A stretch of DNA of 64,000 bases from Auanema rhodensis (Eukaryota; Animalia; Nematoda), in the NCBI GenBank assembly GCA_964057225.1, contig OZ059899.1, positions 12,214,001-12,278,000 on the forward strand, given 5' to 3'. The notes beneath the pieces were generated by a model. It saw only the letters and a program-made list of their open reading frames with translations. It made no database searches and was not told where the DNA came from. The translations under genes were made by a program, and so were the position numbers. Positions 2,203 through 59,078 of this stretch are shown here, in pieces (the stretch's first letter is position 1; each line of letters opens with the position of its first letter).

Positions 2203-3500
2203 GTTTTTCCCAAACTAAAAAAATTAAATTAAATTAAAATAGGAAAATTTGAGAAGTGAAAGGAGTAAGGAAAATATCCGAAAATCAAATATCAACTAAA
2301 AAATTTGAATAAATAAGCCATATAACCTCTAAAAAGGCTTAAAACCTAGATGAGCAACAGGAAATCTCCTTAGAATAAAACACAATTACAGAATTAGGAA
2401 AACCTCTTCATAAACAAAAAAATAACAAGGGAAAATTTAGGCTGCGCCATAGAGAATGAGAGTTTTAGACGTGATTACGGTAGCTTGCGAAAGAGCGGTT
2501 GCAATCGGGTCGGGACCAATTTTACAAATCTAATGTCCGTTTACTGGGTGTTGGTACCTATTTCATATCAATTAAAACGTGAAACAAGATTGTTCCACTT
2601 TTATTTTCATAAAAATTGTAGATGGTCAACAATATATGAAGTTAAGGAAAATATACACAAATTCCAGGCTAATATTAAGTATTCTAATAATGTAGTGTAC
2701 TAAAATATTTTGCTTTACTCAATCGTTGCATAATCTGGTTTTTTTGTTACTTTTAATAATTTGAAAAGATCACAATAGTTGTTCAATTCTGTAGTGTTAG
2801 GCTTATTGCTTCAGTGTAGGTTATTGTTCATATTTCGATAATCATAAAAATCAAATAACTTGACATAACATGACCTACGATAACTATGAACAAAGGGAAC
2901 TAGAATATAGGATTTAGAAGATTTGAGGTTGACCTCAAAATTACGTGTTAAAGAAATATGAATGACATGTGTTGAAGTGTCACTGTAACCTCCCGGCAGA
3001 GAGGGTGTCACACAGAGCCTTAGGTTAGCCGATTCCCTAATATGCTTAAAGGAATTTTCATATCAGTGTATGAGTTAGGTTAAGATATAGTAGAATAACA
3101 ATATAAGAATAATCAATTTTATTTTCAATAGTTGTACAAACTACGTAAAAACAATTAAAAGATAAACAAACATCGTTGATGACTAAACATGATCTTTATC
3201 ATATCAAAACTATGAAAAATGCACTTTTCTTTTAAAAGTGATAAACAATGAGTTTCTATGAAAAAACAAGAAATTCTTATCGAAATAAGTTTACGACCAG
3301 CAGTGTTCATAACTTCGCGCACTACTATTGAATTCAGTTCTATCGCTCTCTCCGCTAAGGGTAATCCCGCTGGTAATTTATTTTCAAAAACACGTTAGCC
3401 TTTATTTAACTGAACAGGTCAGAGCATATTTCAAATGTTCACAAATTTCAAAATAATGAGATTTATTCTAATTTTTAGGCGTCCCGATTCTGAATAAATA

Positions 3501-3513
3501 TTTTGGCGGGAAA
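3501..3513 (+). promoter_or_regulatory. E2F/DREAM-type motif TTTTGGCGGGAAA upstream of the nuclear receptor gene
   Basis: Consensus-like E2F site ~170 nt upstream of the ATG at 3671; motif match only. Confidence 0.3.
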
Positions 3514-3670
3514 GGCTGGAGTTCATATAAGGTCAGCAGGAGGTTGGTGACCTGACGCTAGGACCGTAAGTTACGTTCCGCCCCTCGATCCGGACAATCT
3601 TGGCCCAACCTACTTTAACGGATCACATATCCTTCTTGTGCTCATCATTGCTTAGCTCATACACATCAGG

Positions 3671-6134: not shown

Positions 6135-7808
6135 TATTTTTATGCAAAATAGTTTATTTCTATTCTATATATCTATATATATATCTATATATCTATCTAT
6201 ATTATAACATATCTCATTTATATCCGGGTTTGTTTTGAATTATCGGTAGTTTTCTTCCAATATTCTTCGGGTTTCTTTATTATTATTCAAATCTTTGATA
6301 ATAATTGCCAATGTTCTCTGTACTCTTTACGGTGTTTGTTTACTGCCATTCAGATGTTAATAAAGAATTTGTATTTCAAAGTTTTTTTAGAACTTTCGAG
6401 CAACATAAAACAACTTGAAAAAATAAAACACTGTTTCTTTAAAATAAAAACATGAAAAAAGGGGACACGTTCTCTCACAAAAGCAGTGATATTCCCTACA
6501 AAGTTATGGAATAAAAGACTAGAATATCACTACCCGGATAAAAACCCTCTCTCACTGAAAAACGGAACTCCCATTTATGGGCATGACATGTACGCACAAA
6601 ACGCTTTTATGGGATCCTTAATGAGACCACTCACACTCGTATGTAAAGCAAACTTTTTTAATTTAAAAAAAGAAAAAGCCTGAGAAAAAAATTTAAACCT
6701 AATATATCTACTTTACTTTACTTTACATATTATTCTGAACTCTTTCTCACATTCCTAATAAGTCTATATAATGTGTGATGATATCAATTAACTCGTATTT
6801 AAGCGCACAGGAAAAATAAATTTAGTAAACAGGTGCTTGAATAGATCTAACGACCTCGATTTTCATTTCTTCTCGCATACAAAAATTCATTATATGGGTT
6901 TCTCAGCTACTGAAAAGACAGATTTTATTGTTGATAATTTTGTTTAAAAGTGTTTAGATTTACTTATTGCTGATAATTTTGTTTTAAAATATTCAGATTT
7001 ACTCATTTTTGTAAAAATCTTTAAAAATTTATTTCAAAAAATTAGTGGTGGGTGGGGCAACGGAACAATATGACCGCCTAATATTATTGAAATTTGAGAA
7101 GATTTTAAGCTTTTAAGGCATTTAAACCTTGATTGAAATACAGCTTCAGACAGTTGCGCACGTGTTGCTTGTCACAAGCCATTTCATTTGAAAAAAAAAT
7201 TTTTTTATAATTTAAATTTAAAACAATTTTTTAAATATAATTTTGAATTTGGTTTATGCTAATTTTCAAATTCAAAATATATATTCGAATTTAAATGTGG
7301 GTTGCCAGAAACTTTTGCGCACACCTAATATTTCATTCATACTGTATTAGATCGCTCTTGCCGGTTTTTAAACAGGAAAACCAAGAGAATGTGTATATGA
7401 GCTACACCTATTACAGACACAAAAAAGAATCAACCGCGTCTTTTTTTCGTATGGGAATCAAAAAGGCGGAAAAATGTTTTTTCGATTTCTTCAGATTGGG
7501 TCCAGAGGGCAAAAAAGCGAACTCCGGAAAACTACGACTTAAATCATCGTAGTACTTCATATGTTTGATTGAAATGTAAAGAGATAAGTTGAAGAAACAC
7601 TACGCTTGAATTAATTTATTACGGGGACCGCAACCTATTCAAGCACATATGTAAAAAAATATCAAAATCGGAAAAAAAACCCGTTACATTTTAAATACGA
7701 ATGACTGAATTACACAGAGATGCATCGGGCAGATACTGAGAATCACACTTTCACACGGGTCATAACGAGCAAATTTAGTAAAAGAAACAAAACGAACAAA
7801 AAGAAAAA

Positions 7809-10800
7809 TTAGTTAGAACCTTGACCAGCTTTTCGCATTTCTTTCAAGGCCCAGTTAGCCAGTGACTTATTCTTCGAAGATTTACTCTTTTTCGCTCTTT
7901 GTAATAATCCATGAACCTGTAAAACAGATCTTAACTTTTCGAAGAAAAATGTTCTTAATACCTTCTCGTTGGCGATATAAGGAAGAATGGCGGCACCATA
8001 TAAACTGACAAGATCTCCTATCAATCCAGTTACTGTTCCTACGAGAGGATCTGATGGTTCCGGCTTTTGATCACAAACCCTAGAAAGAAAACATAAAGAA
8101 AAACTATGAAAAAAAGCTTACTTCATAATCAAGCCTGCCATATCATTCATGTACCGTGAGACACTCTGTTGAGCATGTGTTTTCTAAATAGAAAATTATA
8201 GGTAAGAACAGGGAGCACAACCGACCTTAGCCTCATCTCTGTCAGCACCATCTGGTACCATAGACTGGAGGATACCAACATATGATGAAGCAACACTATC
8301 ACGTAAGCTATCGACATAATCAACTTGGGCTTCATCATTCTATAATAATTGTTTCCATAATTTTTTGTATTTTTGCTTGAAGTTATGGTTTCAGGAACAT
8401 CATTGCCCTTTTATGTACTGTCTTAACTAAGTTCGCGACCTTTTGTTGCGTCATGTTAGATACCGCGTAAACAACATGACCCCTATGCACACTATAAACA
8501 GCAGGTGAGCACAAGAAATCTTATAAACTCTTCCAGATCACCAGGGGTCCTGACACTTAATTGAGGCAATCCCCTTGTCACTACTTAATGACTCATCCCA
8601 AACCATATTTAGCTATCTGATAGTTCGCCCATCTGCTTAGGAATGTAAGACTTACGGGATCGGTAACCATTGCGCCAGCGGCTTCATTTAAAATCTTCAT
8701 AACGTGCTCGATGTATCGCTCAAAGTTTGGTCCAATGGCTAATGCAACATCTCCAAAGTGTCCAAGAATTTGCACTTTAGCGTCTTGTGATAAGGTACGA
8801 TCCTAAAGAACAATTATTTCGTTATTGTAGTGCTTAACATGAACATACATTAAGAGAAATAACAAAGCGTTCCATAATTTGATCAAGGAAGGGAGCGATG
8901 ACCTCAATATTGTGAGATAAAGCGCGGCAAATGTCTACTACTAATCCGGATCCAGCAATGCATACCTATACAAAAACACTACTTCTGTTCAAAGAACCAC
9001 GAAACATACTTGAGGCTCTTCATAATTGCTAAGAGCCTTAATGATATGTGGTCCAAGTGCAGGGACATACTTGCCGAAATTGGAATTAAGAGCTATAACT
9101 GATTTCTGAGAACTTATTCATAATAAATATACGAACCTTCAGCCAAAGCAGCAACAGCTAAGAGAGCTTCTTCCATCACACTGCTTCCTTTTCCAGTAGC
9201 ACGGCACATAATTTGTAAAAGTCCAGTCATGATATGATCACCGATATGTGGAGCATCTTCGGGTCTCATTTTCCGAAGAACTGATTGCAGGGTGGCACAT
9301 AAAAGAGATTGAAGATCAACAACAGCAGACTAAACATTTTTGAATATGAATGGAAACATTGAAAAAACCACCTTATCACTAATGTTTGTAGCAGCTGCTT
9401 CCATGTTAAGAAGCTGCTCCAACTTCTTTAACATGATAATAGTAGTGTTCTGAACAGCGGGGTAACAATCCTTGGGAGAGTTCTTGATGAGTTCCATTAA
9501 AGTCTCAAAAGCGGCAAGACGAAGATTAGATTGATTGCTGTCTGATCTGCAACACAAAAGCTCAGGAAAAAATCCTAAAGGTTAAATCACCTATCGGTAG
9601 TTTTGATAAGTTCATCGACCATAGCTTGGAATACAGGAGACAAAGAATAAGTTTCAGGTTGACCGGTATTATCAGTACCAAGCCCAGCAGCGTGTTCATA
9701 CACAGCTTTAACTAAAGAGACGAGAGCCTGAATAAAAAGAAGATTAGATATAGAAAAGAAGTTCAAGCTTACCCAGCAAACGTTAGCAGCTACTCGTGGT
9801 TCTTGATGTAGACCAGCACTGAACACGGGTAAAAGAGCTTGAATCAAGCACTCATTTGCAACAATTTCTGGGCAAACATCAAGAATTCTTCCGATAGTCC
9901 AAGCTGTTGAATCACGAACAGTTACCATACGGTCTTCCATAGCCTGGATGAGAAGAGGCAACGCTTGTTCAACCAAAGGTTGAAGTTTAGCTGGATCAGG
10001 TCCATCAAGTATAGAACCAAAAGCCATGATAGCAGCATCTTTATAACGCCAGTTAGGGTTGGTGAAATTGGGGAAGAAAGGTGTAACAGCATCCAGAATA
10101 TCATCTCCAACGCACTGAGCTAACAACATGATACAAACACCTGCAGCTTTACAAGGTGTCCAATCATCATCGTCATCTCCGTCTTCTATAAATATCAAAT
10201 GTATAATTGCAATGACATGATTTTCTACCTTGCTTAGCAAGAGTTTCTAACAAAAGGGGACAAAGATGAGGAGTAGCTCCCTTGGCATAATGACGTGAAA
10301 CACGCTCAGGAGCTCTATTGTTGTCTTGAGCCTAACAAAAAGAAACAATAACAATACTTCAAATACTTCCAACCTCTTCAGCTTCAACGGCTAATGCTAT
10401 TTCTTCTTCGCAAACGTTAGACCAGAACTCAATACCTTGAAGAGCTACATTGTCTTCGTCACTTTTCATTGAATGAACGGTAATCTATGAATGTTTCTTG
10501 CTATAAGTAAAAATATGTTGAAATCTTACTGGAAACAGTGCACTGGACATATATGTTTCCATAAGTTGATAATAGAGAGTCATGATACGGACAAGACATT
10601 GCAACGCGGCAACTTTTACTTGGATATCGTCAACTTGGGAGGTTTCACAAACTACTTGCATAATAAGATGACGCTCAGGCTTAAATAAAACTAATCATAA
10701 TTGCTCTATAATTATAATTCTTACATCATTATAAAAGTTGTTATGAGTAAATTCAAGAGCATTGAGCAAAGCATTGGTAGCAGCTAAACGAACATGATTT

Positions 10801-11592
10801 GATGATTCTTCTTTTCTCATGCCTTGAACAATGGCGGTAAGAATAGCATTAGCTTGAGATTCAAGAACCTATATGATTTAATAAAAAGTTATATTTTGAC
10901 GTGGTTGCCTTACATGTGGGTCTATATCCTGACAAATATATCCCAAAGTTTCTAAGGAGGATTCTTTCAAACTTTCACTGCTTGAACCATCTGTTACATT
11001 AGCCATAAGTCGGTTTATTACCTCGGGCCAAAGCTAAAGAAAATATTCCCGTAAACAAGCATTATACTAAAAACCTCACATTTGAAGGAATTTCAGCACA
11101 TGCAATTGCTGCGGCACATTGGGCTGCTGTAGAGGGTCTCGATGTTTCGGTTCCCAAGGTATCCATAACATTCACCTTAATTAACTGACGAACATCAGCG
11201 GGAAGTTGCAACCACCTAAATTCCGAACGTCAAGAAATTACTTCGATTTTACTCCTTTTTACCTATTCAGATATAAATGCTTTGTTTCTTCTTCTTTAGC
11301 CGATAACACATTTTTCAACTGTAGACCAGCAGCTTTTCGAATAAAATTATTTACTTGAGGGGCTCTAAGGATTACACTCAATTCTTTTACAAAGGTTGGC
11401 TTAAAAATCCAAATTCATTTGAAAATGTTATTTTTATCTTACGAAATCTTGTGTGGAAGCATCATTCAGAAACTGCAAAGCTCTTTTCTGGTCTTCTGGA
11501 TCTAGAAATTATCAGAGTAGAACTTGAACTTTCATGAAATTCTTACTCTGTGATAAAGTTTTGTCCAAGACATCTACAAGTAGATTGGCCAT
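7809..11592 (-). CDS. imb-1: Importin beta-1 (karyopherin beta 1)
   Basis: ATG directly after ttcag at 11592; 'AAGLQLKN', acidic loop '[15 protein letters not shown]', '[18 protein letters not shown]', '[12 protein letters not shown]', C-terminal '[12 protein letters not shown]'; many short GT-AG introns. Confidence 0.96.
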
Positions 11593-12498
11593 CTGAATAT
11601 TTAAATTACTGCTTCAGTTTCTCTCGAAAAAAATAACGTAAACTAATCAAACAGGAGACGAAAAGATTTCGCAAAATAATATGTCTAATCTGAAATTTAA
11701 ATTGTTGCCTCTGCAAATTTCTGCGGAATCGCGCCAAGACCAATTTTATTTTTTGTCCACATATGCAGTATTTCTAGCTGTGTTCTCTTAAATTATTTCT
11801 TTCTACTTTTATCGTTTTAATTCTTTTTAAAAATTGAAATTAAAAAAGTGTATATATTGATCAAAGTGATAAGACCTATTTTGCTCTTTCGTTTCCTTAC
11901 AAATTAAGTTTTTATACGACTTTGTTGGATTTACATAATTAATCTTTCGTAAACTCTTAAGAATGATTAGTATGCATGAAATTAATTCAGAATAAAGAAG
12001 ACTAAAATTATAATGTTGTGGATAATTCTTCTACTACTTATTTATCCTAATGTTCTGATTATTATTGGATCACAATTTAAAATATATTTTAACTATTTTC
12101 TTCATTGCATGATGGTATCACGCATACTTCAGGATTTCTTTTAATTTTTTATAGTCATATACATGTTATACATTATAGACTTCTGTTTTGTTTATTTTCT
12201 TTTTCTCTTTTTTCTTTTGAAAGCTTTGGAGTTAGAGCTCCTCATTCCATGCGCGTGCTGTTGGCTATCGATCTTGATGTTTGGGCCATTCCGTTTTAAC
12301 CTCCCTCGCTGGCAGCATATATAGAAATGCTCCGCTTCATTTTTCGTTGAATTTTTCTTTTCCTCTTTGTTTACATAAAACCTTTTTGCAAATACTACAC
12401 AACCATAATTTTATTTAAAAATCTGCGATTCCTAATTGTTGCAAAGTTTTCAGGATATTTCCTCCAAGCTTGGTAAAATTAAAAAAAACTAAAAAACG

Positions 12499-16237
<3,739 letters not shown>

Positions 16238-25327: not shown

Positions 25328-25370
<43 letters not shown>

Positions 25371-26638: not shown

Positions 26639-27719
26639 GCCGATGCTTAAACGTAAAATACTTCTTATGACATCTAAGAAACTGTAAAAGCCTCGATTAA
26701 TTTTCAATCGGCTAACGATTTTGCGTCATCATGTGGCTTTGAATAGGAGAATATACCTATATATATATATATATATTCATTCAAGCATCGTCATCATCAC
26801 TATCAAAATCATCATCATCATCTGTATATGTAGCAAAGCAAAGTATATTTTCAATTGGGATCTAGTAGCACATCAAGTAGCATCTCGTATCATATAGTCA
26901 ACTATAGTTTGTATGGCTTTAAGCCAAAAAAGAAAAAAGAAGAGAAGGAGTAACCCTGAATTACATAAGATTCGCCATCATTATTATCATCATCATTACG
27001 TTATAAACTATCGTTATTATCACCATATAAGTGCCGTGACTATCGACAGTGTCGTCAGAACTCTTGATCTCTTGCCGCCAACATCTTATATTCTTCCTGA
27101 TCGGAAACAAAGTTACGCCGAAAACAAGAAGCAGATCATGGAAGAGCACCTTTCTGACGATTGAACATCACGAACCACCTCTACAGCGACATCACACTAG
27201 ATGAATAGGCTGGTGCTACCTGGTGCCAAGGACGTTGGCAGACGTCCAACAACCCTAACACATTGGCTTCTTAACTCTTTAGTCTTTCCTGTGAATCTAG
27301 CTGTTTGATTGTTTCATTTTCTTCTTTTCCCTTCCGTTTTTCTGTGGTTTGTTTCGGCAACCACCACACAGCTCCACAGCACTTGCCATCTCTAATATCT
27401 TTCTTTATATATTGTTTTAGTTATATATATATATATATATAAAACTAAAACAATTGATTATTGCTATCTTATCTATTAAACAATAGGTAATTTAGTGGAA
27501 TAATACCAAAATTTATATGATATTTCGATAAATACCTAACATGCACTATTCAAAATACACACTTAACATATAGAATTACCCTTTGTTATGGCAAAATCTT
27601 TTATCATCTCTCTCGCTACTTCAGCATATCACAGTAGTGGCTACAAGTACTATTAATTCCTGGCTACATCTTTTGATTGAATCCATCTCATTCACCTTCT
27701 ATTTGCCTAGATCCAGTTA

Positions 27720-27720
<1 letters not shown>

Positions 27721-27759
<39 letters not shown>
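27721..27759. repeat. (CT)n microsatellite
   Basis: Near-perfect CT run; a second CT-rich run lies at ~28139-28190. Confidence 0.9.
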
Positions 27760-27760
<1 letters not shown>

Positions 27761-29643
27761 TTATCAATGTCTTAATGTTCTATTTTTAGTTGTAGAACAA
27801 GAATCTTTTATGTGATTTCATATTCTATTATTTTTCTTTTTCAATCATACATCAGTTCCTTAAATCTGCTTCTAGGAGTATATCACTGAGATACTTCGTC
27901 TTTCGTTTCCTGAGCTTTCTCATGTTTTTTTCTCTTTGTTGGCATTTTTAAAAAAAATCCAATTCCTTTCTTGTTTAAGCCTAATTCCCATATACTCAAG
28001 CTTTACTTCTCATGGTATTTGGCTAAGCATGATATTTCAACAACAGCCTCTATTCATTCTTTGATCTTATAAGATAAAAAATTGAAAGAGCAAGACTCAC
28101 CTTACGAATATTTGAATTATCCCCTTCCTTCTACCCTTCCTCCCTCTCTCTTTCTCTCTCTTTCTCTCTCTCTCTCCCTCTCTCTCTCTCTTTTTTTTTT
28201 GAATTAATTTCCTTTTTCATTATTTATTTTGCTTTTGCTTACTTTTATAGATGTTCATTCTTTTTTTTCATGCTTTGTGTTTAAATTTTTAATTTTTCCG
28301 CTTCTTCTCTTTTCATCTTTCATTTGTTAATTGCTCAGACATAATACTACGATCTCTTCTCGTAGCCATAATAATTAAAATAGAACTGATCAAGATGTTT
28401 TATCAGTTATTTTTTCAGAATATTTATCTAAAATTGTGTTATACACCTGTAATATTATATCCATATACCTTATTGATTACATCATCCATACTTCTGTACC
28501 AGCTTTGTATATATCAGCATTTTAAAAATAAGATGAGAAACAAATTATATTTATCTAATATTGTTAAAACCATCGTTGATAAATAAATACTTATTCTCCA
28601 TGTATTTCGTTTGACTTGTTCTCAAGGAAGTGTTGCTGTGTAATGAGGTATTCTTCGTAATGATTTACGGAAGCCCTCGTAAGTCTAATGTAGCTAGTTC
28701 ATGCTGCATGATGTCATCCAGCGAAATTCCCACGCAGAAGCTTGGTTAACGTTCTATTTAAAGGAAAAGACGAAACAAATAAAACAACGAGAAATGAAAG
28801 CACAATGACGTACTTGCATTGCTCGATAAACTAAATTGAATTTAATCATTGAATTATATGGCGCCACAAAGCACATTTCTGCTTCTGCGTGTTTTCGCGA
28901 GAGTATTACGGTACAATCTGACCTCACAATCCAATGCGCTGATCAAGGGGAACTAGTAATATCTGAATTACAGATACTACAGAATAGAACTGAAAGCCTA
29001 CAGATTTTCAAAACACAAACAACGTTCAATCAAAATTGCTTCGGAATTTTTCGACCTGAGTTCCAATAAGAGTTCATATCTTCAAAATTTTCCATCGTTC
29101 AACGCATTCTGATCTTCTACTAGCATCAATCACATAGTGAAAAACAGGAAAACTCTATAAGAATCACTATATAACAAACAAACAACACTAATTAACGTTT
29201 AAAAGCCGAAAGGTTAGAAATTATAGAACATTTTTCCGGCAAACCGAAATAGTCGCGTGATATTCTTGATTATTACCAAAAATATAATATGTAAATGCCA
29301 CATCTTACTCAGTAAAATGTTATAGCATACAACAATACCTAGGTCATTGATTGAAAATCACATTAAGCAAACGATTTCGAAACTATTTCATCTTTGGCAG
29401 AATGAATCATACTTTTTCTCTGATGATTGCCTGTCTTATTTGGAAAATAAATCATTTTGTTCGAATGTTTTCGAATAGGACAGGAAAGGAATCAAAATGC
29501 CTCAGTGAAACAAATTCTTATTTAACTCTTCTTATAACAATAGAAAAACTAAGCAGAATACCACTTTTTTATATAAAAATATGTTTGTGAAATTGTTTTT
29601 ATTTTAGAAAAAGCTTTTCTTTTTTTTTTCAAAATTTCAAAAT

Positions 29644-29660: not shown

Positions 29661-30162
29661 ATCGAAGCTTCCGATCTCTGTCATGTTACCGAAGACTGAA
29701 AATAGATCCAAATAAAAAAACAAAAAAAAATCGGCTACTTTTCTAGTTTTAGGAAGATTCATGATTCCCTGTCACACTCATGTGATTTAATAGACATTCA
29801 TATGTTCGAATTTTTCTCTTAAAACGGCTTCTCCGAAATTGTAATCATTCCTCATATTTCAAAGCTTCTTACTAAGTTTAACCGATACAGGTATATTCTC
29901 TGTAAGAAGTTTTGGTTTTTTCTAATTGAATCAGAGTATTTTTGATATTTAGCGTGAAAGTAAACAGCAATTTCTGTTTCAGTACGAATTTACCGATTTC
30001 TTGAACTTGACTTTAAAAATCGCGTTTGATCATATCGTCAAAGCCGCGGTATATTGTTTTTAACTTACCAAAAGAAATTTAGTCATTAGATTGTGACTAA
30101 TACCCTTTTTCGTGTAAAAATACGTCATGCTGATATGGTAACACAAAGTAACTGTGAACTGA

Positions 30163-30243
30163 AGTAGTATACAAAAGGTTGACGCTGGCGCACCTTTTTT
30201 GCCCAAATGCGATTTTTTCAGATTTTCATCATTTTAAAAACAT
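30163..30243 (+). repeat. Left terminal inverted repeat (81 bp)
   Basis: Reverse complement of 33425-33505 with 3 mismatches; followed by degenerate subterminal copies of TGGCGC...TTTTGCCCA at ~30312 and ~30396. Confidence 0.95.
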
Positions 30244-30506
30244 TTTTTCATTGAAAATCATACTTAATTTCCCCGAAATGTGTCATTTTTAAAAAATGAC
30301 CAAAATATGTCTGGCGCTCCACTTACCCATTTTGCCCAAATGACGTTTTTTTGCAGATTTTCAGCAATTTAAAGCATATTTTAATTAAAAATGACTGGCG
30401 CAAGCTCAGCCTATTTTGCCCATTTTTCCCAGCACACCTTTTTTTTTTCAAATTTCAGCTTTTCAACATTTTCACATAAAAATAGCTTTCATAAATAAAT
30501 AAAATA

Positions 30507-30892
30507 TCAAATTTTAAAAAAGATTTAAAAGCTTTGAATAATCTGGATCTTGAAGAACTTGTTAAAAAGCTAGGAATCAAGAACTTTAGAGGAATCTTTA
30601 TCCGTGATATTCTACCAAATAAGATTCAAATGATAGTGGTACTCATTGGGTATGTTATTCTAAGAAAAACAAAGAATGATATTACTTTGACTCGTTTGGA
30701 TTAGATCCTCCATTAGAACTCCAAGAGTATTTGAAAACCTCAAAAGAGGAAAATAAAACATCTGATATAATATTATCAACTTTCCGAATTCAAGAATATA
30801 ATACACTTCACTGTGGTTATTATTTCTTATTATTTCTCAAATTATTAGAATCGCATGACTTCAGAAATACTATTTTATCACTCCTAAACTAA
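30507..30892 (+). pseudogene. Maverick adenain-like (C5) cysteine protease remnant
   Basis: LNNLDLEELVKKLGIKNFRGIFIRDILPNKI/(deletion, frameshift)/NDSGTHWVCYSKKNKE*YYFDSFGLDPP...RIQEYNTLHCGYYFLLFL: H-W, YFDSFG and Q..CG catalytic motifs; one stop and one frameshift. Confidence 0.9.
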
Positions 30893-31279: not shown

Positions 31280-31625
31280 CTAAATGGTTAAAATGACCAT
31301 TTTGAAAAAAGAAGCATAACAGCAGAAACAATGTTCGTAAGGAACAAGGGCATGTAAGTCTACATTAGATGCTAGCGATTGCTAATCAATTTCAGGGTAG
31401 ACCTTTAGAAAATTGACGACCAAAAAAATGATCTAATGACCCAAAATTGACAAGGCTGATTCAAATGATTTACATAAAAGCAACTCTAAAAAAATTTATT
31501 TCAGAAATGAGGATTCCTTTTCAAAATCAGCACAAGACTTGGGAATTTACCACTACAAAAAGACTCACATCAAGACGAAAACGGAAATCGATAGATATAT
31601 CCAAAAGAACAATAATCAAATATAA
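31280..31625 (+). pseudogene. Second intron-containing cargo gene remnant inside the Maverick, convergent with the HEPN-like gene
   Basis: Canonical 42-nt intron gtaagt...tttcag (31354-31395); probable 50-nt intron 31455-31504 (GC or mutated donor, tttcag acceptor); last exon NEDSFSKSAQDLGIYHYKKTHIKTKTEIDRYIQKNNNQI*. Upstream exons contain stops; start is approximate. Confidence 0.4.
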
Positions 31626-32536
31626 ACAGAGTATTGACAATTATAATTTCTGCCACCAAGTTTAATCGAATACGTTTTGTTTTCAATTGTGGCTTTTGGA
31701 TACTTTCCATCTATGAAACTCTTTTTGAAATCGTCCCACAATTGCTCCCTGTCAAATTTTTCAAGTTCGGAGACAAATCCTTCAACATCGCATATTATCT
31801 TCTTATATTCATCGGCTTTAAAACCTTCTGAGCCATATACTGATCGATACATTCTAAATTTATTTAATAGTAGAGTTACAAGAGAAATAAAAGAATCAAA
31901 AAATTTTAATCAAATGAATATAAAGGGAAATTTTGATAATAAATGAAATATCGAGAATAAACTTATGCATTAAAGCATATAAGCTTAAAAAGGCTTACAT
32001 TTCTGCTTTCGTCCAACCGTCAATGAGTTTTAGGAAAACATCGGTGGGCAGTTTTGAAGCGAAACGTTGCGTGGCAAATCGGCAGCAATAGGTCAAAGAG
32101 CTGTCCGACTTGAGGTCTACACCTGAAACTTTCGAATAAATACCTACAATAAGCGATAAATAATACCTCCACAAGACAAGTACAGCTGTTTCACAGCGTA
32201 AACCGCGGCAAACCATGTATTTTCAGCTGCTTGGATGAGATCGGGAGGCTATTGTGCACAACAATGACGAGCCTTTGCTACAAAAGACCTGGCGTCGTAG
32301 AGTTCCAATTCACTCTAAAAACAAAATAACTTTTAAAAAGTCTTTGTTAACTCGAATTTTTAATTTTAGAAAGCTTATTAGTACCCATTAAAAAAAGATC
32401 AAAATAAATCATACGGGGGACTTCCATTTTTCAAATCTTCAATCGTGACGTTTTCCTTGAATTGATTTCGAACATCTTCAAAATCGTCTTCTCCTACCCA
32501 GACAGCAACCCCGTTGACAAGAAATTTTTTGAACAT
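31616..32536 (-). pseudogene. Four-exon PaREP1/HEPN-like cargo gene inside the Maverick
   Basis: tttcag then ATG at 32536: MFKKFLVNGVAVWVGEDDFEDVRNQFKENVTIEDLKNGSP | ELELYDARSFVAKARHCCAQ*PPDLIQAAENTWFAAVYAVKQLYLSCG | GVDLKSDSSLTYCCRFATQRFASKLPTDVFLKLIDGWTKAE | IMYRSVYGSEGFKADEYKKIICDVEGFVSELEKF...VYI*. In-frame TAG at 32249-32251. Confidence 0.7.
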
Positions 32537-33018
32537 AATGAAATCCTGAAATAAAAATTTTAGTTATTAAAAATGAACGAAAAAATAATGAAATACAATG
32601 AAAATACGAATGAAACTGTAAGAATAGTTAGGGTTAACGTTCCCTCTAAAAAGAGCTCTAATGGAAGATATGATGTTAACAATTTCTCTCCTTCCGTCTC
32701 TGCTTTCCACTCCAGCCCAACGCGTTTGCGTGTAGCCTCGCGTGCGTATAGTTCAACTGGAGCCAATGTGTGATTGTGCTCGGTCACAGTGAGGAAGAGA
32801 AAAGAAGGTCACACAAAGAGAAAGTAAAATTGCCAGGGTGAAGGTATCACAAATTGAGAAAACTGAAGGAAAAAGAGAGAGTGGTTAATCTGTAAGATCT
32901 AGAACTCGACGAGTTTGGTCACACTATAAACTTCTCGAAGGTGCTAGCAAACAGGTATGAAAGAACGAAGTGTATCATTTGAGAACGATTTGCGTCGCAG
33001 ATATTCTTCAGTTTTGAT

Positions 33019-33420
33019 ATGTTAAACAGAAAATCTTGCAGTACAGAGGGTTATCTATATGCTAAGTTAGTTTGGAATAAAATGAATTGCAAAAATTTAG
33101 AAGATTATACTAGAATTTATATGATTAATGATGTCCTTCTCTTGGCAGATGTTTTTGAGTATTTTAGAAACTTAAGTGTCAGGGTTTATGAGCATGATCT
33201 TTGTTGGTATTTCACAAGTCCGGGATTAGCTTGGGATGCTATGTTAAGAAAAACTTAAGTAGAATTAGAAGTACTGCAAGTTGTTGAGAAATACCGATGA
33301 TTGAGAAGGGAATAAGGGGTGGTATTGTTAATGCTGTCAAAAGATACTCTAAGGTTAATAATAAATACAATCCAAACTTCAATGCATCGATACCTTCAAA
33401 CTTCCTTTTGTATTTAGATT
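33019..33420 (+). pseudogene. Protein-primed family B DNA polymerase (pPolB) fragment
   Basis: YAKLVWNKMNCKNLEDYTRIYMINDVLLLADVFEYFRNLS...WYFTSPGLAWDAMLRKT*VELE.../MIEKGIRGGIVNAVKRYSKVNNKY...FLLYLD: typical Polinton PolB motifs (DVLLLADVFE.FR, PGLAWDAML, IRGG, YLD); truncated by the right TIR. Confidence 0.93.
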
Positions 33421-33424
33421 TTAG

Positions 33425-33505
33425 ATGTTTTTAAAATGTTGAAAATCTGCCAAAATCGCATTTGGGCAAAAAAGGTGCGCCAGCGTCAACCTTTTGTATA
33501 CTACT
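33425..33505 (-). repeat. Right terminal inverted repeat (81 bp)
   Basis: Ends ...CCTTTTGTATACTACT, abutting TSD AACTGA; joined directly to the truncated pPolB fragment. Confidence 0.95.
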
Positions 33506-34343
33506 AACTGAGCTCCACAAAAATCATTAGTCACTAACTGGAGGCTGGTGTTGCGAAAGTATATGTGAAGATAGTTTTTCTTCAATATCCTGTGTTATTT
33601 CGAAAAAATTCACCGCCTCATGTGTCATTGTCTTTTCTGACAAAGGTTGTTCATATAAATGTATATGTGGACCGTGTTCAAATTTTATTTCGAAACATGA
33701 CAGTAATACGTCGCCATGTTTGTCTGTGAAATGCATTAGTACATTTTTTTTTTCTGCCAAAGAAGAAATGAATCCGAAATACTCAATGTCGTCACCTACC
33801 TACTGACACATTAACCTGCAGACTTTCCCAGAGTGCAATTGCACTTTTACAACTACAACTTCAGGAAACATAAACTTTCAAAGTCTGAAAGGAAAAAAAT
33901 GAAATGAAAACGAAACGATTCGCATTTGATTTATTTCCTCTCTGTATGCATGCATTTGAAACAGAGAAAGTGATTTAACTAGATTATATAGTGTATATGT
34001 TCTTTCATAGATGTTTATTACTTTATCTTTTTTAAATATATGAAGATCGTCATTTGGAGCTAATGTAATTGAGATACATGCTTATGCGGATTATTCCGCA
34101 GACAAGCTTGAGAATGTTCTTACTCAAATAATGTAAAACATGGAGGAATGCACAAATGAAATAAAATAGGAAGTGAAATATGAATAAATGGCCATTTAAC
34201 AATTGACTAGGGCAAATCATGATATCAATATTATGTTGTTGATTAATGCTAATAAACCTGATGAAATACCAGTACCGGCATTTAACTCGATACCGTACAG
34301 TGTCATATCGTAATTTTGTATAATCGTAGATTCCTAATTTGAA

Positions 34344-37300
34344 TTAAACCCAGTACTGGCTATCTGATGGCTTTTGAGTGGAAATCTGCTTAAACAATGG
34401 CATGACAGGCGGTGTTTCATTAATCAAACCAGCATAGTCGAGTGTGGGTTGGTGTCGTCTCTTCATTGAGGGAGTTTGCGTCACAGAGCTTGTAGCTGCT
34501 CCTCGATCAAAGCTTCGCATTGCAGGTCTGTTGGATTCTTGACGATTAGTGCCCCCTACGGTAGCGAACACCGTGCTACCTGCAAAGTTAAGTAAAAATA
34601 AGGGAAAAGCATGAATGCAACAGTTTTGTGAATCATGTATATCTCAAACTAACCTAAAAGATCAGGCTTTTCTTGAGATATTGAACCACTCGGGGTGGGT
34701 GGTAAACGTGGAGGGGTCAGTTGAGGTATAACCTGCAGATGATAGTCAGCATTTTCATAAATTATTGAAAAGTATACCTCTTTGGGCTTTTTCTTTCGGT
34801 TTAGACATATAACTAATAAAACAGTAGTTAACATGATTGCAATGAGAACTACAACAGGTATTTGATCACCAATAGGGACCAGGCGAGGAAGCTCAGCGGG
34901 GTGAGTAAACTCCTTTTTTGGCTGTATTTCATTTTTTTCTACAACATCGTCGGAATCCACTGAGGGAACTATCGTTATATCCAAGACTATTCTCGCTGGT
35001 TGAACTGTATCAGCTCTAACTTCTAATTCGAGATGTTCAGTAACCTAAATATATCTGGTTAGTATATAATCGAACACTTATCACAAACTTCTTTAGCTGT
35101 TTGAAAAGCTTGATAATACACTCGACCCCTAACAATATCAGGATATGTGAAAAACAGTGCTGAATGATCAGAAGATGGATCCAACGTTATCTTTCCGAAT
35201 GCTGGAGGATTTACAAGTAAAAATCGAGGCGTTGAGCCCTGAAGCACATTATTTGAATTGCTAGTAAAATGTGATGTAGTTACTTGTAGAGCGGAAGCAT
35301 TTAATTGGCTGGAAGTGAGAGGAGTAATGCTATTTGATTCAACAATAACAGGCTGCACTTCAACAAGCGAACGAACCTGAAAAAAAGATATGAAAGGCTT
35401 CATACTTTATGGTTTCTTACTCTAATATCTGATCTATTTTTCAGCATATCTCTATCAGCATTTGCCATTACGAATTGAAAAGAATCCTTAAGATTAATCA
35501 ATAATCTAAGCAAAATTTTTACTAATACCTGGTAAGAATGCATATTCAATTGTGCATAAAGCACACGACCTTCATCTATATCTTCTTGAGTAAATGTTTT
35601 AACTTCTTTTTCACCAGCTACCCAATAGAAAGTTCCATTTTCCGGACCAGATGTTATTTTATATCTTATCTGTGTTCGATCACCATTTGTGTAAGCACCA
35701 AGATGTGAACTGAAACTTATAGAATATCCTACGAAATTCAAAAAGGTGCCGAACCGGTTTAATACCACATATGTTTTTCCTTGTGGATACTCGATAGTAG
35801 TGTGATTTTCGAGTGTTAAATCAAGTGGTCTGATTTTTACTATTAAAGCTCGAGAATGTCCTTCAGCTGACAAGACTATAATGTCGCTAGATGAGGCCGC
35901 GGCGAGTGTGGGTGTGTGAACAACGGATACCAGACCTTGGTTTATCTGAAATATTCCCATAGATGTAATGCATGTCCATTTATTATAATTTAACAGATTA
36001 CAAATCTACCTCTTCTTGACTGAAAAATTGTTTTCGTTTACTATCCACTCGTATTTCAGTTCCTACTCTCCCGGACTGTATTATCTGAATACATATTGGT
36101 CTTGGAAATAAGGCAAAGCAGTTCAAACCTCGTAAACAATGGATTGAGGGGGCACATGAGGATGGGCTGCTAAGTAGGAATTGCTTGAGAGTTCAGTAGA
36201 TCCTGAACTGAGGACTGATATCATCGGTTCAAAGTGAAGAATCTATATAAATGAAATTTGTATGTTATAACATCATATATGTTTAATAACCTGAACCAGA
36301 GGATCTCGATGATTTTGTATTTTTATTGGAACTGTAACACGCAAACGACTACTACGTTTTGTAGCTTCGCTCAGAGGATATACAAACAGCATAATTGAGT
36401 CATCTCCTGTATCCTCACCCTGAATATCTTCATAAGTCATTAGTTGAGATATTTAACAGAAAGTACATGATTCCTGTATATAGGTTGAACTCCGTTTTTG
36501 AAATCTTCAACTGCTACAACTCCGCGATTACCATCCAACCATTCTAATGAACCGTATCTGGGCATTTTTCCAACTTCAATAACCAATGACTGGAAAAAAT
36601 GAATAATACTAATAATAACAATAATAACAATAATATAAGGTAAATGATTATTTTAGATATTATTCACCTCATCTTCAGCAGCAAGAACAAGCTCATCTAA
36701 GTTCAAATGAGTACTGTTCAATGCAATTGAACCTCCTCGAGAAAGTATCATTGGACTGAGTGAGATAAATCGAGATAAATCCTCGTTAGCTGCAGCATAA
36801 GTTGATGAAATGCGGAACCTACATGTGTGAATATAAAAATATCGTTTAATTAAGTATAATACCTGAATTCATGTTCAATTGGCCGATCTGAGCCATTTCT
36901 AGAAACAACAAAGCTGAAAGAATCTTTTCGGGTCCACTGTTTTTGAGGAGACAATTGATTTGAATACAGGATATTCCGTTTATTTATCTAAAAAATGAAT
37001 AATTTAAGTCTAAATTTTTGACATAATTTTGTATTTTACATCATGTTGACTGAATTTATTAACTTCTTTTCCATCTTTTTGTATCTGTCCATAATTAGGT
37101 GGTTTCACGATAGAAAACAATACTTCTCCTGGATGTGTCTAAAATATTTTATACTAAAAAGAAAAAATATAATTGATAATTACATTAGGTAGATTGGCTC
37201 GGAGCAAGTCGACTCCAATGATATTCAAGCTTTGAGGTGCAGCAATTAGCCGGGAATTTGATTCTAGTACTGGTGAGGATGTAGACCAGCTTTCAATTGA

Positions 37301-40300
37301 AAACCATTCGGGTCCAATTTGATGAACAGTATCAGAGAGCAAAAACGAGAAACCACCCGAATTAGAAGAATCTGAATATTGAAACAGTAGACTGATACAT
37401 CGATAATGACTTACTTGCAAAGCGAATATAAGCAACGAGGTTATCATCAACTTGTTTTTGCGAGAAGTTATAGATTGCTCTATCGATCTCATTAACATTA
37501 ACAATCATACCATTACTTGGACGAGAAATTAGGAAGAATACAGAATCAGGTATAGTATCAGGATCCTTTCAGAGAAAATAAAAAACATTTACATATTATA
37601 TAAGAAAGATCATACCTCCGTATCCAAATGCATATTTGTTATCAAAGCTTTATCACCATTCACACGCAATATTTCATTTCTCAGAAGTTGTGGACCTGAT
37701 GAATTTGATATAAAGATTCCAATCAAACTATTTCTTACTTTGAACATTTCGTTTTGCCAACATAACATCAACAACCATTTCATTAGTACAAGTATTTTGT
37801 GATATACAGGCAATAATTCCAAATTCATCTTGAGTAGCCATTTGACTTTTATCGGACACATACACTATACGTCGTTCACGTAAATCAGATCCTGAGAATG
37901 ATTCTAAAATATTTTTATTAATTTATATTTATATAAATATATAAAACCTATTGAACTTATATTATCAACATTCCAATTATCTCGAACTATCCATCCATAC
38001 AGAGGTTGTTTCGAAATCTACAAAAATTTATTCATTTAAATTTACTTTTTCATGGAATTCAGTACTTTCAAGACATAATCATCACGATCTGAGGATGACA
38101 CATTCAGAATTTGTGTAGAAATTACAGAAGAGCCACCGGAAAAGACACTAACATCTTGAGTTTTCAACTTAACCTGAAACAATTCAATCAATTATATTGT
38201 TTGTTAATAAACAAACAAAATGCTCATAAATGTCCATATACAAGGTATATGGTCCCTTGGTAACATGAGGAGAAGAAATGTTGAATTCAAATGAATCTCT
38301 GCCTGATCCCGTTGAAGCATGAAGGTATTGCAACCGTCCAAGATCAATATCAGCTTGACAAAATCGTATTACAGATAACTGAACCGAAGAGGAATTTTCT
38401 GAATAATTGGAATAATTGGAAGATATGAGTGAAAAACGCTTTACCCTTTTCCAGAACAAGAGAGCCTTCTTGCGGTTGTTTAATCACAATATACCATAAC
38501 TGATCTGCTTGAGTTGCTCCATCCACCTATAGAATGTATATTTAATATTTTATAATTATGTAAGTTTGTCAACCTGTTCAAGATTAGTTTTATCAATTAC
38601 GACGGCTCCTCCAACAGGAACCTGAAGAGGCTGACTTTTTCTGAGTTCCAATGTCGATCCCAATGAACGTCTGGTTATACTAATCTAAAGAAGAAACACT
38701 GTTATATTATATGTGATGAAGCTTTATTACTCGTGTTTTCAGTTCTCGGTCACCAACTTTCAACACAATATCTTCCTCATCGACTCCGTGTACTTTATAA
38801 GCTACATCACCATTAATAATATCTTGTTGAGTGAAGTTATTAACAGATCTCCAATTATCTCTATTAACAGTGTCTCGTATACGAAATCCACTTCCTTTCG
38901 TCAGTATGAGGATATCTGAAGGTCGAACATCTAAATTCGTTCCTACCGACAAATTTCCGGTACTCAATTCTGAAATAGTGGACGAGAATATCTGTTTGGT
39001 AACTTTAGAGAAATACCAATTTGCACTTCATCCCCGGGTAAGCAACAATACTGTATGAATGCATCTGCTAATCTAACAAACGGCTCACTCGCTTCAATTC
39101 GCAAACTACCCTTAACCAGATGTTTGCCATCAGTTACAGAATATCTGAAGAAGATTTCAAATGTCCAATCCCATTCCAAGTTTATAAAATGCTTACGTGA
39201 TGGAAAAATTAGTTTTATGACCCAAATGTCGAATCATTACACGATTGTCTTTTAAGTCATTTTCAGTAAAATGTGTCATGGGTAAATACGGTGAAACAGT
39301 TGAAAGAACAGCAACATCCTAATTTAATTATATTATATAATTATTAAAATAGAAGATACCTTAATAGGCTGACTAAAATCAAATTTTAAAGCCGGTGCAT
39401 CGACATCATCATCTTTCCAATTTAACAAGTATGGATGAAGTATCCGTTCACCACGTTCGACCATCTGAAACAATATATTGATATTCAACGTGTAACAAGA
39501 ATCAGTACCTGTATAACATCAGATCCTATTAGACGAGGTGGATTATCATTTGTAAGGATAATGCTAAATGTCATCCATAAAGGTATTTTTCTTCCTCGAC
39601 TGAAAGTTGATTCTGCTGTTAAATAAACACGATCAGTTCTAGCTTCATCTCCCGAATGGCTATAAATCAACCTGAATAATCAAATTTATAAAATAATTGA
39701 AGATATTAAGAAATACTTTTCATTCAAAATATCCTTTGTTGTAAAATTAGCTAAATGTCCAAGTCGACGAGAGCCATCTTGCATCTATACTCAAAATTAA
39801 TAATTGGTTAAATTGTAATAATTACCTTTAGCTGAAAAAAACCATGACTAGGTGGAATTGTTATTGAAAATATGAATTGTTTATCATCTGAAGTAGATAA
39901 AGAAAGAGAATCCGAAGTAATCTATAAAATTATGTAATAACTATTTCAAATAACCATTATTATAAAAACCGTTGCAGTGGCACCTTCTTCTAAGACAATT
40001 GTTCGATTGATTAATTGGATGGAAGATGGAGAAGGCACAAAAATAATCTGAAAAAAGTACTAAGAAAGATTTAAGCTTAGTAATTAAACACCTCAAAATG
40101 CTGAGTTTCAGAAGAAACAGATGGAGAAACTACTTGAAATAGAAAGAAATCGTTAACTATTGAAAAATGCATGAAATGTAGCTTATATTGTATAAGACCA
40201 TTGTCAATATCCTGAAATATAATAATTCGAACTATTTTATAAAAATCTAAACAAACTTGTTGTGTAAAATTTGAGGAAACTCCTATACGTCTACTCTTTT

Positions 40301-43300
40301 TTCCAACTTTTCGTGAGAGAATTCCATACTGGGGTGGCTCTTTGATATGATAAACTAACTTATCAGCCGAAAAACTTTTTGGAAATGTCCAAGCAAAGAG
40401 ATGAGCTCGTGACAGATGTCCTATTTCAGTCCCATTAAGCATAAAGATTTCCCGGTTAAAGATCTGAAAACGACTCCTTCACATAAAGCATTATGAATAG
40501 ATGAAGTACCTTAACATTCATTGGTACAAATGTTATACGAAAGTTATGAATCATTGATACATGCTCACCAGACTCAACCTATAATTAGCAAAATAAATAT
40601 TTAATTTACCTAAGAAATACCTGAAAACTGAAAGTATCATGAGTTGGATTGTGATTGCTTGTATGTCTGAATCGTACAAGTCCTTGATCAATCTTAAAAT
40701 GAAATGGTTTATACTGATTTTGTCTAAAATTGATTTCAACCTGATTCTGACTAAAGCGGCTACAAACAGAAAAATGTCCTTCTTCTGGTGAACATTCGAG
40801 TAATCCGTGATCAGGTAGATCCACCAATGAGTAATAAATGGTTAAATCAGGCACAGAGACAGAGAAGGAAAGATTTCTAACATAAGAATCAGCGTATTAT
40901 CAAACGGTTACTAAACTCACTGATTGCTAATTACAGCAGATGAATGATGAAGCAACCAAATTCCCGTGTTACTTTTCAATCGAACTTCTATTGGAGTTGA
41001 TATAGTATGTAAAGCCAAAACCTTAAATTGACGAGATGAAATAAACAAAATTAAAAATAACTCAATTCATCTACAGTATATTTCATTAAAATAGCTGACC
41101 TGAGATCTGGAATCCCCATCTCTTGCTACTAGACGAAGTAAACCCTTTTCATATATACCTTCATCAACAAGTTGAACCTGTGAAAAATCATTTGTCCAGT
41201 GCTCTCACACGATGAATTATACCTGTCGATTGATTAATTGTCTTTGAGAAAATTCAGTGACCGTTTGATCATTGATAGCTAAATGGACTCCTCGTACTTC
41301 AACAACTTGCACACGAACCTATACAACTTATTACATAAAGTAAAAGAAATGATTCTAACCGTGTCTGGTCCATCATCCTGATCTGATAATAGAACTTGAT
41401 CAGTGGTCAGAAAACGTCTTAAAAGAGTCATAATAAATGCAGAAATATTAAATCACGACATACGTTCCTTTTGCTGATATTTTGATAACCTGAGCTCCAG
41501 ACGCTTCGATTAGAGACGGTGGATCATTAACGGAATTGATTCGAATTTTCAATGTGTATGAAGTCGTTTCAAGCCAAGGGAAATTAGCTGTTTTACTGTT
41601 TATTTCTAGCTGAAGATTAAAAAAAATATAAATAATTTCAATCTAATTCAATCCAATTTCAGAAATATTTCATCTGCTATCAAAAAATAACATATGTATT
41701 TAAAATCTTTCTGGATTCTGTTCTTAATTTTTTAACAATATGAAGAGGCTAGCTGAAAGATGACTCTCAGCTGATATCTCTACTTCATTCACTAGGGATC
41801 CGATTACTTAATGAATTGAGCCCAACCATAAATTCGTTATTGTTAAATATTTAAACTTTCACCCGCACTCCTCTTGCCCCCTCAAAACAACAAGGTTGAG
41901 CATATGAAAGAGTAATTTGAGAAGAATATCTATCTAACTTTACGTCAAATTTTTCCTTTAACAAAAAATAAGATTTATAAACGAACACCTGGGTAGTAAT
42001 ACCTGGTGGTTTGCAAACAAACTCAATGATCTTGCTATGACATCACAATTAAATAAATCAGTTAAATGCCAGAGGTAGGAGAGATATTGATTTATTACCT
42101 CGATCAGGACATTTGTTTATAATCTGTTCAATCTAACGAACAATTTATAATATCCCATTAAATGCTTACTTCTCTAATAAATAAAATGCTCTGGCAATCA
42201 TTCTTATCACTTCTAATCTGCTGCGGTTTTTAAACCAGTTGAGGAGAGAAGAGCAGAGAGAAAACTAAGAAAATTGTAGTGAAAACGTACTTGAAACTCA
42301 AAAGCATCATGTGTAGTTTCACTATCATCATGCTTATATATAACTGCTCTAGCTAATATATGTGCATAAGTGAAACTGCTAACTGGTTGACCATCCAATA
42401 ACAATTGACCATGTTGAGGTCCTTCCACAATCTATAAAATCCTTATCAATATAATGCAATTATTGAGTATACTAACGTTAAATATGATGTCAGTGTTTGA
42501 TAAATTCAATCGAGAATGTTCAGGCAGTACATACACATTTTTCCATTGCAATGGCATTGAAGCACCTTCATTTACCTACAATATACTTGTAGTTTTTATT
42601 CTCAAACACTTTAGTTACTTCCAGAGGTTCTGCAACATAAACTGGCTGTAAAACACCTGGAGATGTTGTTGATGGACTTTCTTCTTTCCCATTTCTGCAA
42701 TCATAAAGCTATGCTTTCGTTAGTATTTCAAAGACCTTTCATTTATCGCTTAAGTTTATCAATTAATTAAGATTATGCGATACTTCATTAGCGCAATATT
42801 CATTCAATACTCTGTAATCCATCATTATGGGAGAATCATCACAACGTAGATAACCAAAATCAGCTTTAGTCCAGCTGATTAGATGAACATTGAGAGGGAA
42901 ACATAGTGATACAATGGATTTCTCATATATTCATATGTTATTCACTTCTAAAGACTAGTAGAAGTTGAGAGACCGCAGACAGCTGGTCAGCACCAAATTC
43001 CGTGCTTACGGATCCCTCACGTCCATCCATCCGAGCAAGGCTGGTCGGAGGAAGTTTTGTCTTCAAAGCCGTGTTGTAATTTATATCCGTCAACTAACTC
43101 TATCAGTATCTTCTTCTCTAGTGTGTCACCAAGTCATCCAACTTCAGATATATGCTAGAACTGAGCATAAGCAAAACCAGTGGTGACTTGTGACACTTGT
43201 TCTAATCCCTACTCTTTTTCAATTGAGCTGAAGAATTTATTGAATGATTTAGTATTCAAATTTAGTGACTCCGACTATCAAAAAATAAGCGAAAAATGAA

Positions 43301-52428: not shown

Positions 52429-59078
<6,650 letters not shown>

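Follow-up and report, generated by a model that had tools for sequence, protein, structure and literature searches.

A broken, transcribed PaREP1-type HEPN gene inside a Maverick remnant of the nematode Auanema rhodensis

A spliced gene of the PaREP1 type of the HEPN superfamily, broken and still transcribed, lies inside a 3.3-kb remnant of a Maverick in the genome of Auanema rhodensis. Its family is likely a third cargo family of nematode Mavericks and has likely moved between nematode genera, and its intact members are predicted to cut RNA. Taken as a whole, we consider this account probable. The literature covered, in its accessible parts, describes two cargo families of nematode Mavericks, one of which gave rise to a selfish toxin.

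Results

The window and the bounds of the element

The window, that is, the whole stretch of DNA that was analysed, comprises 64,000 nt of Auanema rhodensis (GCA_964057225.1, contig OZ059899.1, positions 12,214,001-12,278,000, forward strand). It is animal DNA with short introns and ordinary host genes (Table 1), and no second copy of the cargo family was found within its 64 kb. GA/TC microsatellites occur at 25330-25368, 27717-27772 and 28133-28206, together with a 44-bp self-complementary stretch (27411-27454), and most of the other inverted-repeat matches in the window come from these microsatellites. The stretch is contained in 14 sequencing runs, and the contigs of eight of them were examined, four from DNA and four from presumed RNA. 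The RNA label is the tool's guess, as none of the four is recorded as RNA, and all four come from one study. Run X7 is a possible source of the window, and X8 belongs to another study.

The element is a unit of 3,343 bp with 81-bp inverted repeats at its ends and, outside them, an exact target-site duplication of 6 bp. Such a 6-bp duplication and termini that start with AG are hallmarks of Mavericks, or Polintons, and both were found here (AACTGA on either side, ends reading AGTAGT, arms identical at 78 of 81 positions). The three differences in 81 bp correspond to a divergence with a 95% interval of 0.8-10%, which is too wide for dating. Subterminal repeats related to the left terminal inverted repeat (TIR) continue to approximately 30400. 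The TIRs and the target duplication that bound the unit show that the cargo and the Maverick pieces were inserted as one unit, and hence arrived together.

Table 1. Features of the 64,000-nt window, with positions counted from its first letter
Feature	Position	Strand	Remarks
Host genes	1700-16234, 35403-42431, 54973-56691, 62041-63880		ribosomal protein S17, nuclear-receptor C4 zinc finger, importin beta, NSF, cadherin-like repeat protein, rhodopsin-type GPCR, RME-8
Left target-site duplication AACTGA	30157-30162		same letters as 33506-33511; probability of such a 6-bp match by chance about 4e-4
Left TIR, start AGTAGT	30163-30243	+	78/81 identical to right arm
Broken adenovirus-type (C5) protease gene of Maverick	30500-30886	+	match to L001 protease; homology shown for 30561-30886, start approximate
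3' untranslated part of cargo transcript	31441-31615	-	contig of run X11 reaches 31441
Cargo exon 4	31616-31853	-	HEPN helix 3 (final part) and helix 4, beta hairpin at the C-terminus, stop; 36/78 identical to P0001
Intron 3, 145 nt	31854-31998	-	skipped in 3/4 presumed RNA runs
Cargo exon 3	31999-32122	-	22/38 identical to P0001
Intron 2, 44 nt	32123-32166	-	skipped in 3/4 presumed RNA runs
Cargo exon 2	32167-32314	-	HEPN helices 1-2; 29/47 identical to P0001
Intron 1, 100 nt	32315-32414	-	skipped in contigs of 4/4 presumed RNA runs
Cargo exon 1	32415-32536	-	small N-terminal beta-beta-alpha-beta module; 22/37 identical to P0001, 25/37 to P0002
Splice acceptor just before start codon	32545-32551	-	TTTCAG in sequence; transcript contigs begin at 32551, 32544, 32544, 32539
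Multicopy block	32640-32980		upstream of cargo, adjoins pPolB remnant
Broken fragment of pPolB, the protein-primed DNA polymerase B	33016-33419	+	L001 pPolB residues 686-820, E 2e-38
Right TIR	33425-33505	-	78/81 identical to left arm
Right target-site duplication AACTGA	33506-33511		identical to left copy

Remnants of Maverick core genes

The pair of pPolB and adenovirus-like protease that is expected of a Maverick is present, as remnants only. The protease is 59% identical (E 7e-24) to that of the viral contig L001, which itself passes Pfam Peptidase_C5, and it is broken by a stop and a change of frame. The pPolB fragment matches Pfam DNA_pol_B_2 with an E-value of 0.021, which is below the cut-off, and is truncated at polymerase motif A by the right TIR. 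The earlier note, which was made from the letters of this DNA, had assumed a Maverick setting, and the TIRs, the duplication and these two remnants bear it out. The multicopy block (32640-32980) had no Pfam match, and its part at 32891-32978, read as pPolB coding sequence, gave an upstream alignment score of 29.5 against a shuffle mean of 34, thus not above shuffles. The order of protease and pPolB varies, being convergent in L001 and tandem in the contig L012, and in the window the protease comes first, with the cargo between the two.

No Pfam match to an integrase, packaging ATPase, or major or minor capsid gene was obtained in the frames of the element, and a tblastx comparison with L012, which has an ATPase and a capsid, matched only pPolB and the protease. 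As no integrase, ATPase or capsids were found, the element is, judged by its sequence, a deletion derivative and not a complete Maverick. A search with a 20-mer of the TIR returned no viral matches and one metagenome match of only 25 bases. In the four DNA runs there was no joint that would represent an empty insertion site.

Depth in the DNA runs X7 and X9, a rough measure, was several-fold to more than 20-fold above the flanks in the bins of the TIR, protease, upstream block and pPolB (roughly at least 10-fold for the TIR bins, and more than 10-fold for the multicopy block). By the same rough measure most cargo bins lay near flank depth, so that the cargo is near single-copy and the ends are multicopy. 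At the right arm (33433-33505), the contigs of other copies run past the 81 bp with different letters, and the match to a copy of the left end extends to 30297. The full TIR is therefore likely longer than 81 bp, the right arm having likely been shortened here by deletion.

The cargo gene and its transcript

The cargo is a four-exon gene on the minus strand (32536-31616), located between the protease and pPolB remnants. All three introns are GT..AG and are skipped in contigs of the presumed RNA runs (Table 1), and no joints skipping them are listed in the four DNA runs. For intron 3, the fourth presumed RNA run shows a loose end at the donor that reads exon 4 letters. In a single contig, which spans 32551 to 31441, all four exons are present. 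The contigs start at or beside the TTTCAG acceptor, which fits a trans-spliced leader, and the transcript is likely trans-spliced to such a leader at this site.

The frame through exons 1, 2 and 4, with X at stops, matched P0001, a protein of 208 amino acids from Caenorhabditis sp. 36, with an E-value of 4.5e-41 among 5.8 billion. This was the one protein found among 569 candidates by the X-read frame. P0001 matches the four exons in order, with 109 of 200 aligned residues identical in total, and exon 4 alone as a query found no homologue. The four exons with nematode-type introns that had been read from the letters are thus confirmed, and the peptides quoted with them are present in the sequence.

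Presumed-RNA contigs of 614-1531 nt match 32640-32980 at approximately 90% and then continue past 32723 into other sequence; other copies of this block appear to be transcribed and may drive other cargo. The depth in X7, X8 and X9 and the differences listed at 32326-32482 and 31698-31854 indicate that the genome contains at least one further related copy of the cargo. A contig of X8 with a depth of 58 carries, in the same order, a protease-like piece (30670), a piece of the intron 3/exon 4 border (31828-31902) and the upstream block (32706). It may represent a related element with related cargo, or a chance match at 80% likeness.

A dead copy that is still transcribed

At intron 1 the ordinary acceptor is used, which shifts exon 2 out of the frame of the start codon; after splicing, the transcript reads 52 residues and then a stop. 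The earlier note had allowed for either a GAG acceptor or a small indel at the exon 1/2 junction. The GAG acceptor was unused in contigs of all four presumed RNA runs and is dropped, and the indel stands, in the form of a frameshift near the end of exon 1. It is placed there because the Trp found in homologues four codons ahead of intron 1 sits in another frame here. In the homologous frame, exon 2 has the premature TAG that the note had reported at 32249-32251, and the two sites that are mostly His in homologues are Asp and Tyr, likewise as the note had it.

These lesions are the same in contigs of X7, X8 and the presumed RNA runs, which come from three studies, and the X8 contigs cover 31563-31871, 31894-32242 and 32213-32668 without any difference. 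The identical letters across these runs rule out an assembly error as the source of the lesions. The window copy is a transcribed pseudogene with a frameshift, a stop and neither of the conserved His residues. It cannot make a HEPN domain, in agreement with its earlier description as dead.

Fold and family of the intact homologues

The structural work was done on the intact homologue P0001 and not on the broken window copy. An AlphaFold model from a 10-row alignment reached a pLDDT of 83. It starts with a small N-terminal module (41 residues, pLDDT 50-67), followed by four long helices spanning 49-161, one further helix and, at the C-terminus, a hairpin, and it is the source of the structural elements assigned to the exons in Table 1. 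Foldseek, which had been proposed as a check, placed 2hsb and 2q00 at ranks 1-3, with E-values of 0.007-0.017, above the 0.001 bar. With VIA-align the best match was 2hsb (Z 12.2, rmsd 3.0, 116 aligned), where the tool's bar for helical bundles is approximately 13; other matches were 1ufb (Z 9.9), 1wol (9.6), the sacsin HEPN domain (9.6) and 2jpu (9.3). The first eight VIA-align rows were mostly named HEPN entries or archaeal or bacterial proteins. A viral fold library gave no match at E<=0.001, and the homodimer prediction scored 0.12, too low to be read either way.

Profile searches point in the same direction. Pfam PaREP1 (PF05942) matched, at E<1, 9 of 11 close homologues, none of which reached the cut-off (P0001 with 16.3 bits, the curated cut-off being 24.4). 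Among wider homologues, 45 of the 78 matches were scanned with Pfam; PaREP1 matched 21 of these 45 at E<=0.01, with 8 above the cut-off. Single exons of the window did not match PF05942. The top Atlas clusters were PaREP1 at 0.85, to be taken as a lead only. Sequence searches of the PDB returned nothing useful and those of PHROGs nothing, and no relatives of the family were found in viral or metagenome contigs. Together, the model and the profile matches support a HEPN four-helix fold of the PaREP1 type for the intact homologue, and the PaREP1/HEPN identity that had been proposed from a residue pattern was upheld.

The family as such is not new in nematodes. It includes a helicase-PaREP1 fusion of C. 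remanei, P0028, which has a DEAD domain (E 3e-25) together with PaREP1 and was found by P0001 at E 7e-18, and this identifies the family as the PaREP1/8 family described for nematodes in 2013. According to the accessible part of that report (PMC3710099), a PaREP1/8 (HEPN-T) representative of crenarchaeal origin occurs in Caenorhabditis, sometimes fused to a LAF-1/Vasa-like ATPase domain, and has expanded in C. elegans and C. remanei, where it is seen as host defence with no link to mobile elements.

For the residue counts all 88 collected proteins were aligned, among them exon-only fragments and gene models that overlap. Of 70 rows, 61 have His97, and 48 of 61 have His132; both residues are present in 35 of the 51 rows that cover the two sites, and the other 16 lack at least one. 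By its place, His132 would be the His of the motif. Also kept in most rows are D66, Q69, E72, K73, W75, K83, S96 and E129, alongside H97 and H132. An Arg five to seven residues before His132 (Rx4-6H; positions 126-127) is not conserved. The family has the PaREP1/8 pattern, in which the His is present and the Arg of Rx4-6H is absent.

Distribution and gene tree

All close homologues with a known organism come from nematodes. Of the 18 proteins that were looked up, the 14 with an organism name belong to Caenorhabditis sp. 36, C. bovis, C. auriculariae, C. remanei, Heterorhabditis bacteriophora, Auanema sp. JU1783, M. belari, M. spiculigera and Meloidogyne graminicola, and H. bacteriophora has three gene models of the family. 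Among more distant homologues, P0079 carries ubiquitin domains, and P0069 (Meloidogyne graminicola) and P0071 carry an RRM. A comparison of the N-terminus with the ubiquitin-like stretch of P0079 gave an hhalign probability of 10%. Other gene models of the family are fused to host genes (helicases, RRM, SMC, SF3A2). Residues 1-92 of P0008 and the tail of P0018 resemble what we take to be pieces of DNA transposases (MULE-like and another), for which there was no Pfam support.

P0001 of Caenorhabditis sp. 36 and P0002 of H. bacteriophora are identical at 163 of 171 residues over 38-208, a comparison at protein level only, and at only 22 of 37 residues before position 38. The break in identity coincides with the end of exon 1. 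Three of the paralogue types of C. bovis are 52-62% identical to each other. In the trees the P0001/P0002 pair has supports of 92/96 and 87/83 and is not starred. A single clade of the five Caenorhabditis rows was rejected (p-AU 5e-57) in a 20-row tree that left out fragments and near-duplicates, and the organism labels were no more clustered in the tree than shuffled labels. The comparison of gene tree and species tree that the earlier note had proposed thus shows a disagreement, although paralogy with losses alone could explain the non-monophyly of Caenorhabditis. Cross-genus identity and a gene tree unlike the species tree were both found at the protein level only. Near-identical relatives in distant genera suggest that Mavericks have likely spread the gene between species.

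Heterorhabditis homologues and Mavericks

P0002 has an N-terminal extension of 30 residues, which aligns with frameshifts to 32978-32891 of the window, on the strand of the cargo and approximately 360 bases upstream of its start. Against the whole window the extension scored 85, compared with at most 53 in 100 shuffles, and at the nucleotide level its region scored 56, compared with at most 29 at 40 random places. Going by this alignment, the same multicopy block is likely to lie upstream of the Heterorhabditis gene. Of the nine extensions scanned against the window, the remaining eight had no match.

The tail of P0022, also from H. bacteriophora, matches a 256-aa gene of L012 (E 1e-6, with 0 of 200 shuffles as high). 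L012 is a Polinton-like viral contig with genes for a capsid of the double-jelly-roll type, an A32-type ATPase, pPolB and a protease. The 256-aa gene is presumably the minor capsid, by its motifs, its size and its place beside the ATPase; folded alone, its protein had a pLDDT of 33. An Atlas search of the P0022 tail gave only an unconvincing trypsin set, and P0022 was the only one of the 88 collected proteins to match the viral loci that were compared. H. bacteriophora has two full-length Polintons in the accessible part of the supplement of PMC10748475, one with a pseudogenised minor capsid. Outside the window, the association with Mavericks consists of two gene-model artefacts, P0002 and P0022, both of H. 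bacteriophora. Together with the P0001/P0002 identity, they are signs of association and horizontal transfer in other nematodes, in line with the spread by Mavericks that had been proposed.

Discussion

A larger Maverick may have integrated at this locus and then lost most of its core genes by deletion, while the cargo would have decayed as a passenger with its promoter still working. Intact members would be metal-independent HEPN endoribonucleases of a His-without-Arg type, using the two conserved His residues with conserved Glu, Lys, Asp and Gln. HEPN domains are generally dimers, and the intact members probably act as such. The cutting of RNA could shut down or kill the cell in a conflict with a rival virus or with host defence, and the gene would be carried since the element, or its host cell, benefits from such cutting in this conflict.

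We lean slightly towards RNase activity in the intact members. They could instead be RNA-binding receptors or decoys with a HEPN fold, a possibility that we find doubtful. It would explain that no Arg is conserved five to seven residues ahead of the second His and that 16 of 51 rows are without one or both His, and several Caenorhabditis copies are suggested to be inactive receptors in the available text of PMC3710099. However, the same text describes the PaREP1/8 family as generally without the Arg of Rx4-6H, yet with the His and other basic residues kept. Moreover, the residues from D66 to H132 listed above are mostly retained here, and some of the His losses may mark dead copies like that of the window. 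A more specific role, as the present or former toxin of a toxin-antidote selfish element like msft-1, appears improbable to us. The toxin msft-1 did arise from Maverick cargo (Widen et al., bioRxiv 10.1101/2022.07.12.499685, accessible part), many prokaryotic HEPN domains are toxins (PMC3710099, accessible part), and the loss of both His, the frameshift and the stop fit selection against a harmful product. Plain decay fits these lesions too, the protease and pPolB are equally decayed, and no second cargo gene or antidote candidate was found in the 3.3-kb unit.

The link to the element may be read differently as well. The family could be a host-resident defence family, as in the view of 2013, of which a Maverick once picked up a single host copy, so that the association would be incidental. 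The expansions in C. elegans and C. remanei that PMC3710099 describes, in its accessible text, without a mobile-element link speak for this, as do the distant members in Meloidogyne, those fused to RRM, DEAD or ubiquitin domains, and the near single-copy state of the cargo beside multicopy ends. We nevertheless think it unlikely, given the 95% identity between Caenorhabditis and Heterorhabditis in a family with otherwise distant paralogues, the recurrence of the upstream block beside P0002 and the Polinton-like protein fused to P0022. An older host-resident group and a Maverick-borne clade can also exist side by side, which makes the two readings compatible. That the cross-genus identity stems from contamination or mislabelling in one public assembly is very unlikely in our view. 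P0002 comes without a contig record, which would allow for it, but the two proteins differ, and do so unevenly (22/37 in exon 1, 163/171 after), and H. bacteriophora has full-length Polintons on record (PMC10748475, accessible part) and three gene models of the family.

A broader picture can also be drawn, which we put forward tentatively and think less than probable. Mavericks would carry a prokaryote-type HEPN ribonuclease as standing cargo and shuttle it across genera. Intact copies would be active RNases that act for the element against rival viruses or the host and can give rise to toxin-antidote elements; the Caenorhabditis expansions of 2013 would be the footprint of this traffic. A third cargo family with a nuclease fold of prokaryotic conflict systems would, if true, make it seem that Mavericks favour effector-like enzymes. 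It would also open a way for a gene family of archaeal type to spread among animals, and provide a small assayable protein for asking what cargo does for Mavericks.

What is new, as far as the literature searched, is the Maverick link of the PaREP1/HEPN family. In the accessible text of PMC3710099 the word "Maverick" is absent. "HEPN" and "PaREP" are absent from the available main text of the preprint by Widen et al., whose supplements or journal version may list the family. "Cargo", "HEPN" and "PaREP" are absent from the accessible text and supplement of PMC10748475. In the full-text literature searched, including the accessible part of PMC4028283 and with most subscription journals outside its scope, no paper joins HEPN or PaREP1 to nematode Mavericks.

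Comparison with known systems

With the archaeal HEPN-T protein AF0298 (2hsb) and the SSO PaREP1-family protein (2q00, 2jpu), the nematode protein shares the four-helix fold over model residues 43-165. It differs from them in sequence (17-20% identity), in an added N-terminal module, C-terminal helix and beta hairpin, and in coming from a spliced, eukaryotic gene with no nucleotidyltransferase partner seen. Like the nematode Polintons of Jeong et al. 2023 (PMC10748475, accessible part), the element is bounded by TIRs and has pPolB and an adenovirus-like protease; unlike them, it is a deletion derivative of 3.3 kb that lacks integrase, ATPase, capsids and a fusogen.

The family is the same as the PaREP1/8 family in the accessible part of PMC3710099, with P0028 as its fusion, the His kept, the Arg absent and 2q00 among the top folds. 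There it is limited to Caenorhabditis, whereas here it is also found in Heterorhabditis, Auanema, Mesorhabditis and Meloidogyne, and it lies inside a Maverick, with signs of transfer across genera.

The closest parallel is with the nematode Maverick cargo described by Widen et al. (bioRxiv 10.1101/2022.07.12.499685), the accessible text of which reports two families, wasp (wosp, proteases) and krma (kinases), with 20% of wasp and 22.7% of krma genes inside or next to Mavericks. These genes carry a ubiquitin-like domain at the N-terminus and lie in a GC-richer part of the element, with the left TIR on one side and the integrase on the other. The window cargo is different in its predicted RNase fold, neither protease nor kinase, in having no recognisable ubiquitin-like domain, and in its location between the protease and pPolB remnants of an element from which the integrase is absent; the GC content of the cargo region is 0.35 against 0.27 and 0.32. 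In common with wasp and krma, it is an intron-bearing gene inside Maverick ends, it has homologues in C. bovis, C. auriculariae, M. belari and H. bacteriophora with very high identity across genera, and its N-terminal part is more diverged than the catalytic part, here in the one pair P0001/P0002. The break at the end of exon 1 in this pair is reminiscent of the swapping of N-terminal modules in wasp and krma, and the ubiquitin fusion of the distant homologue P0079 echoes both families.
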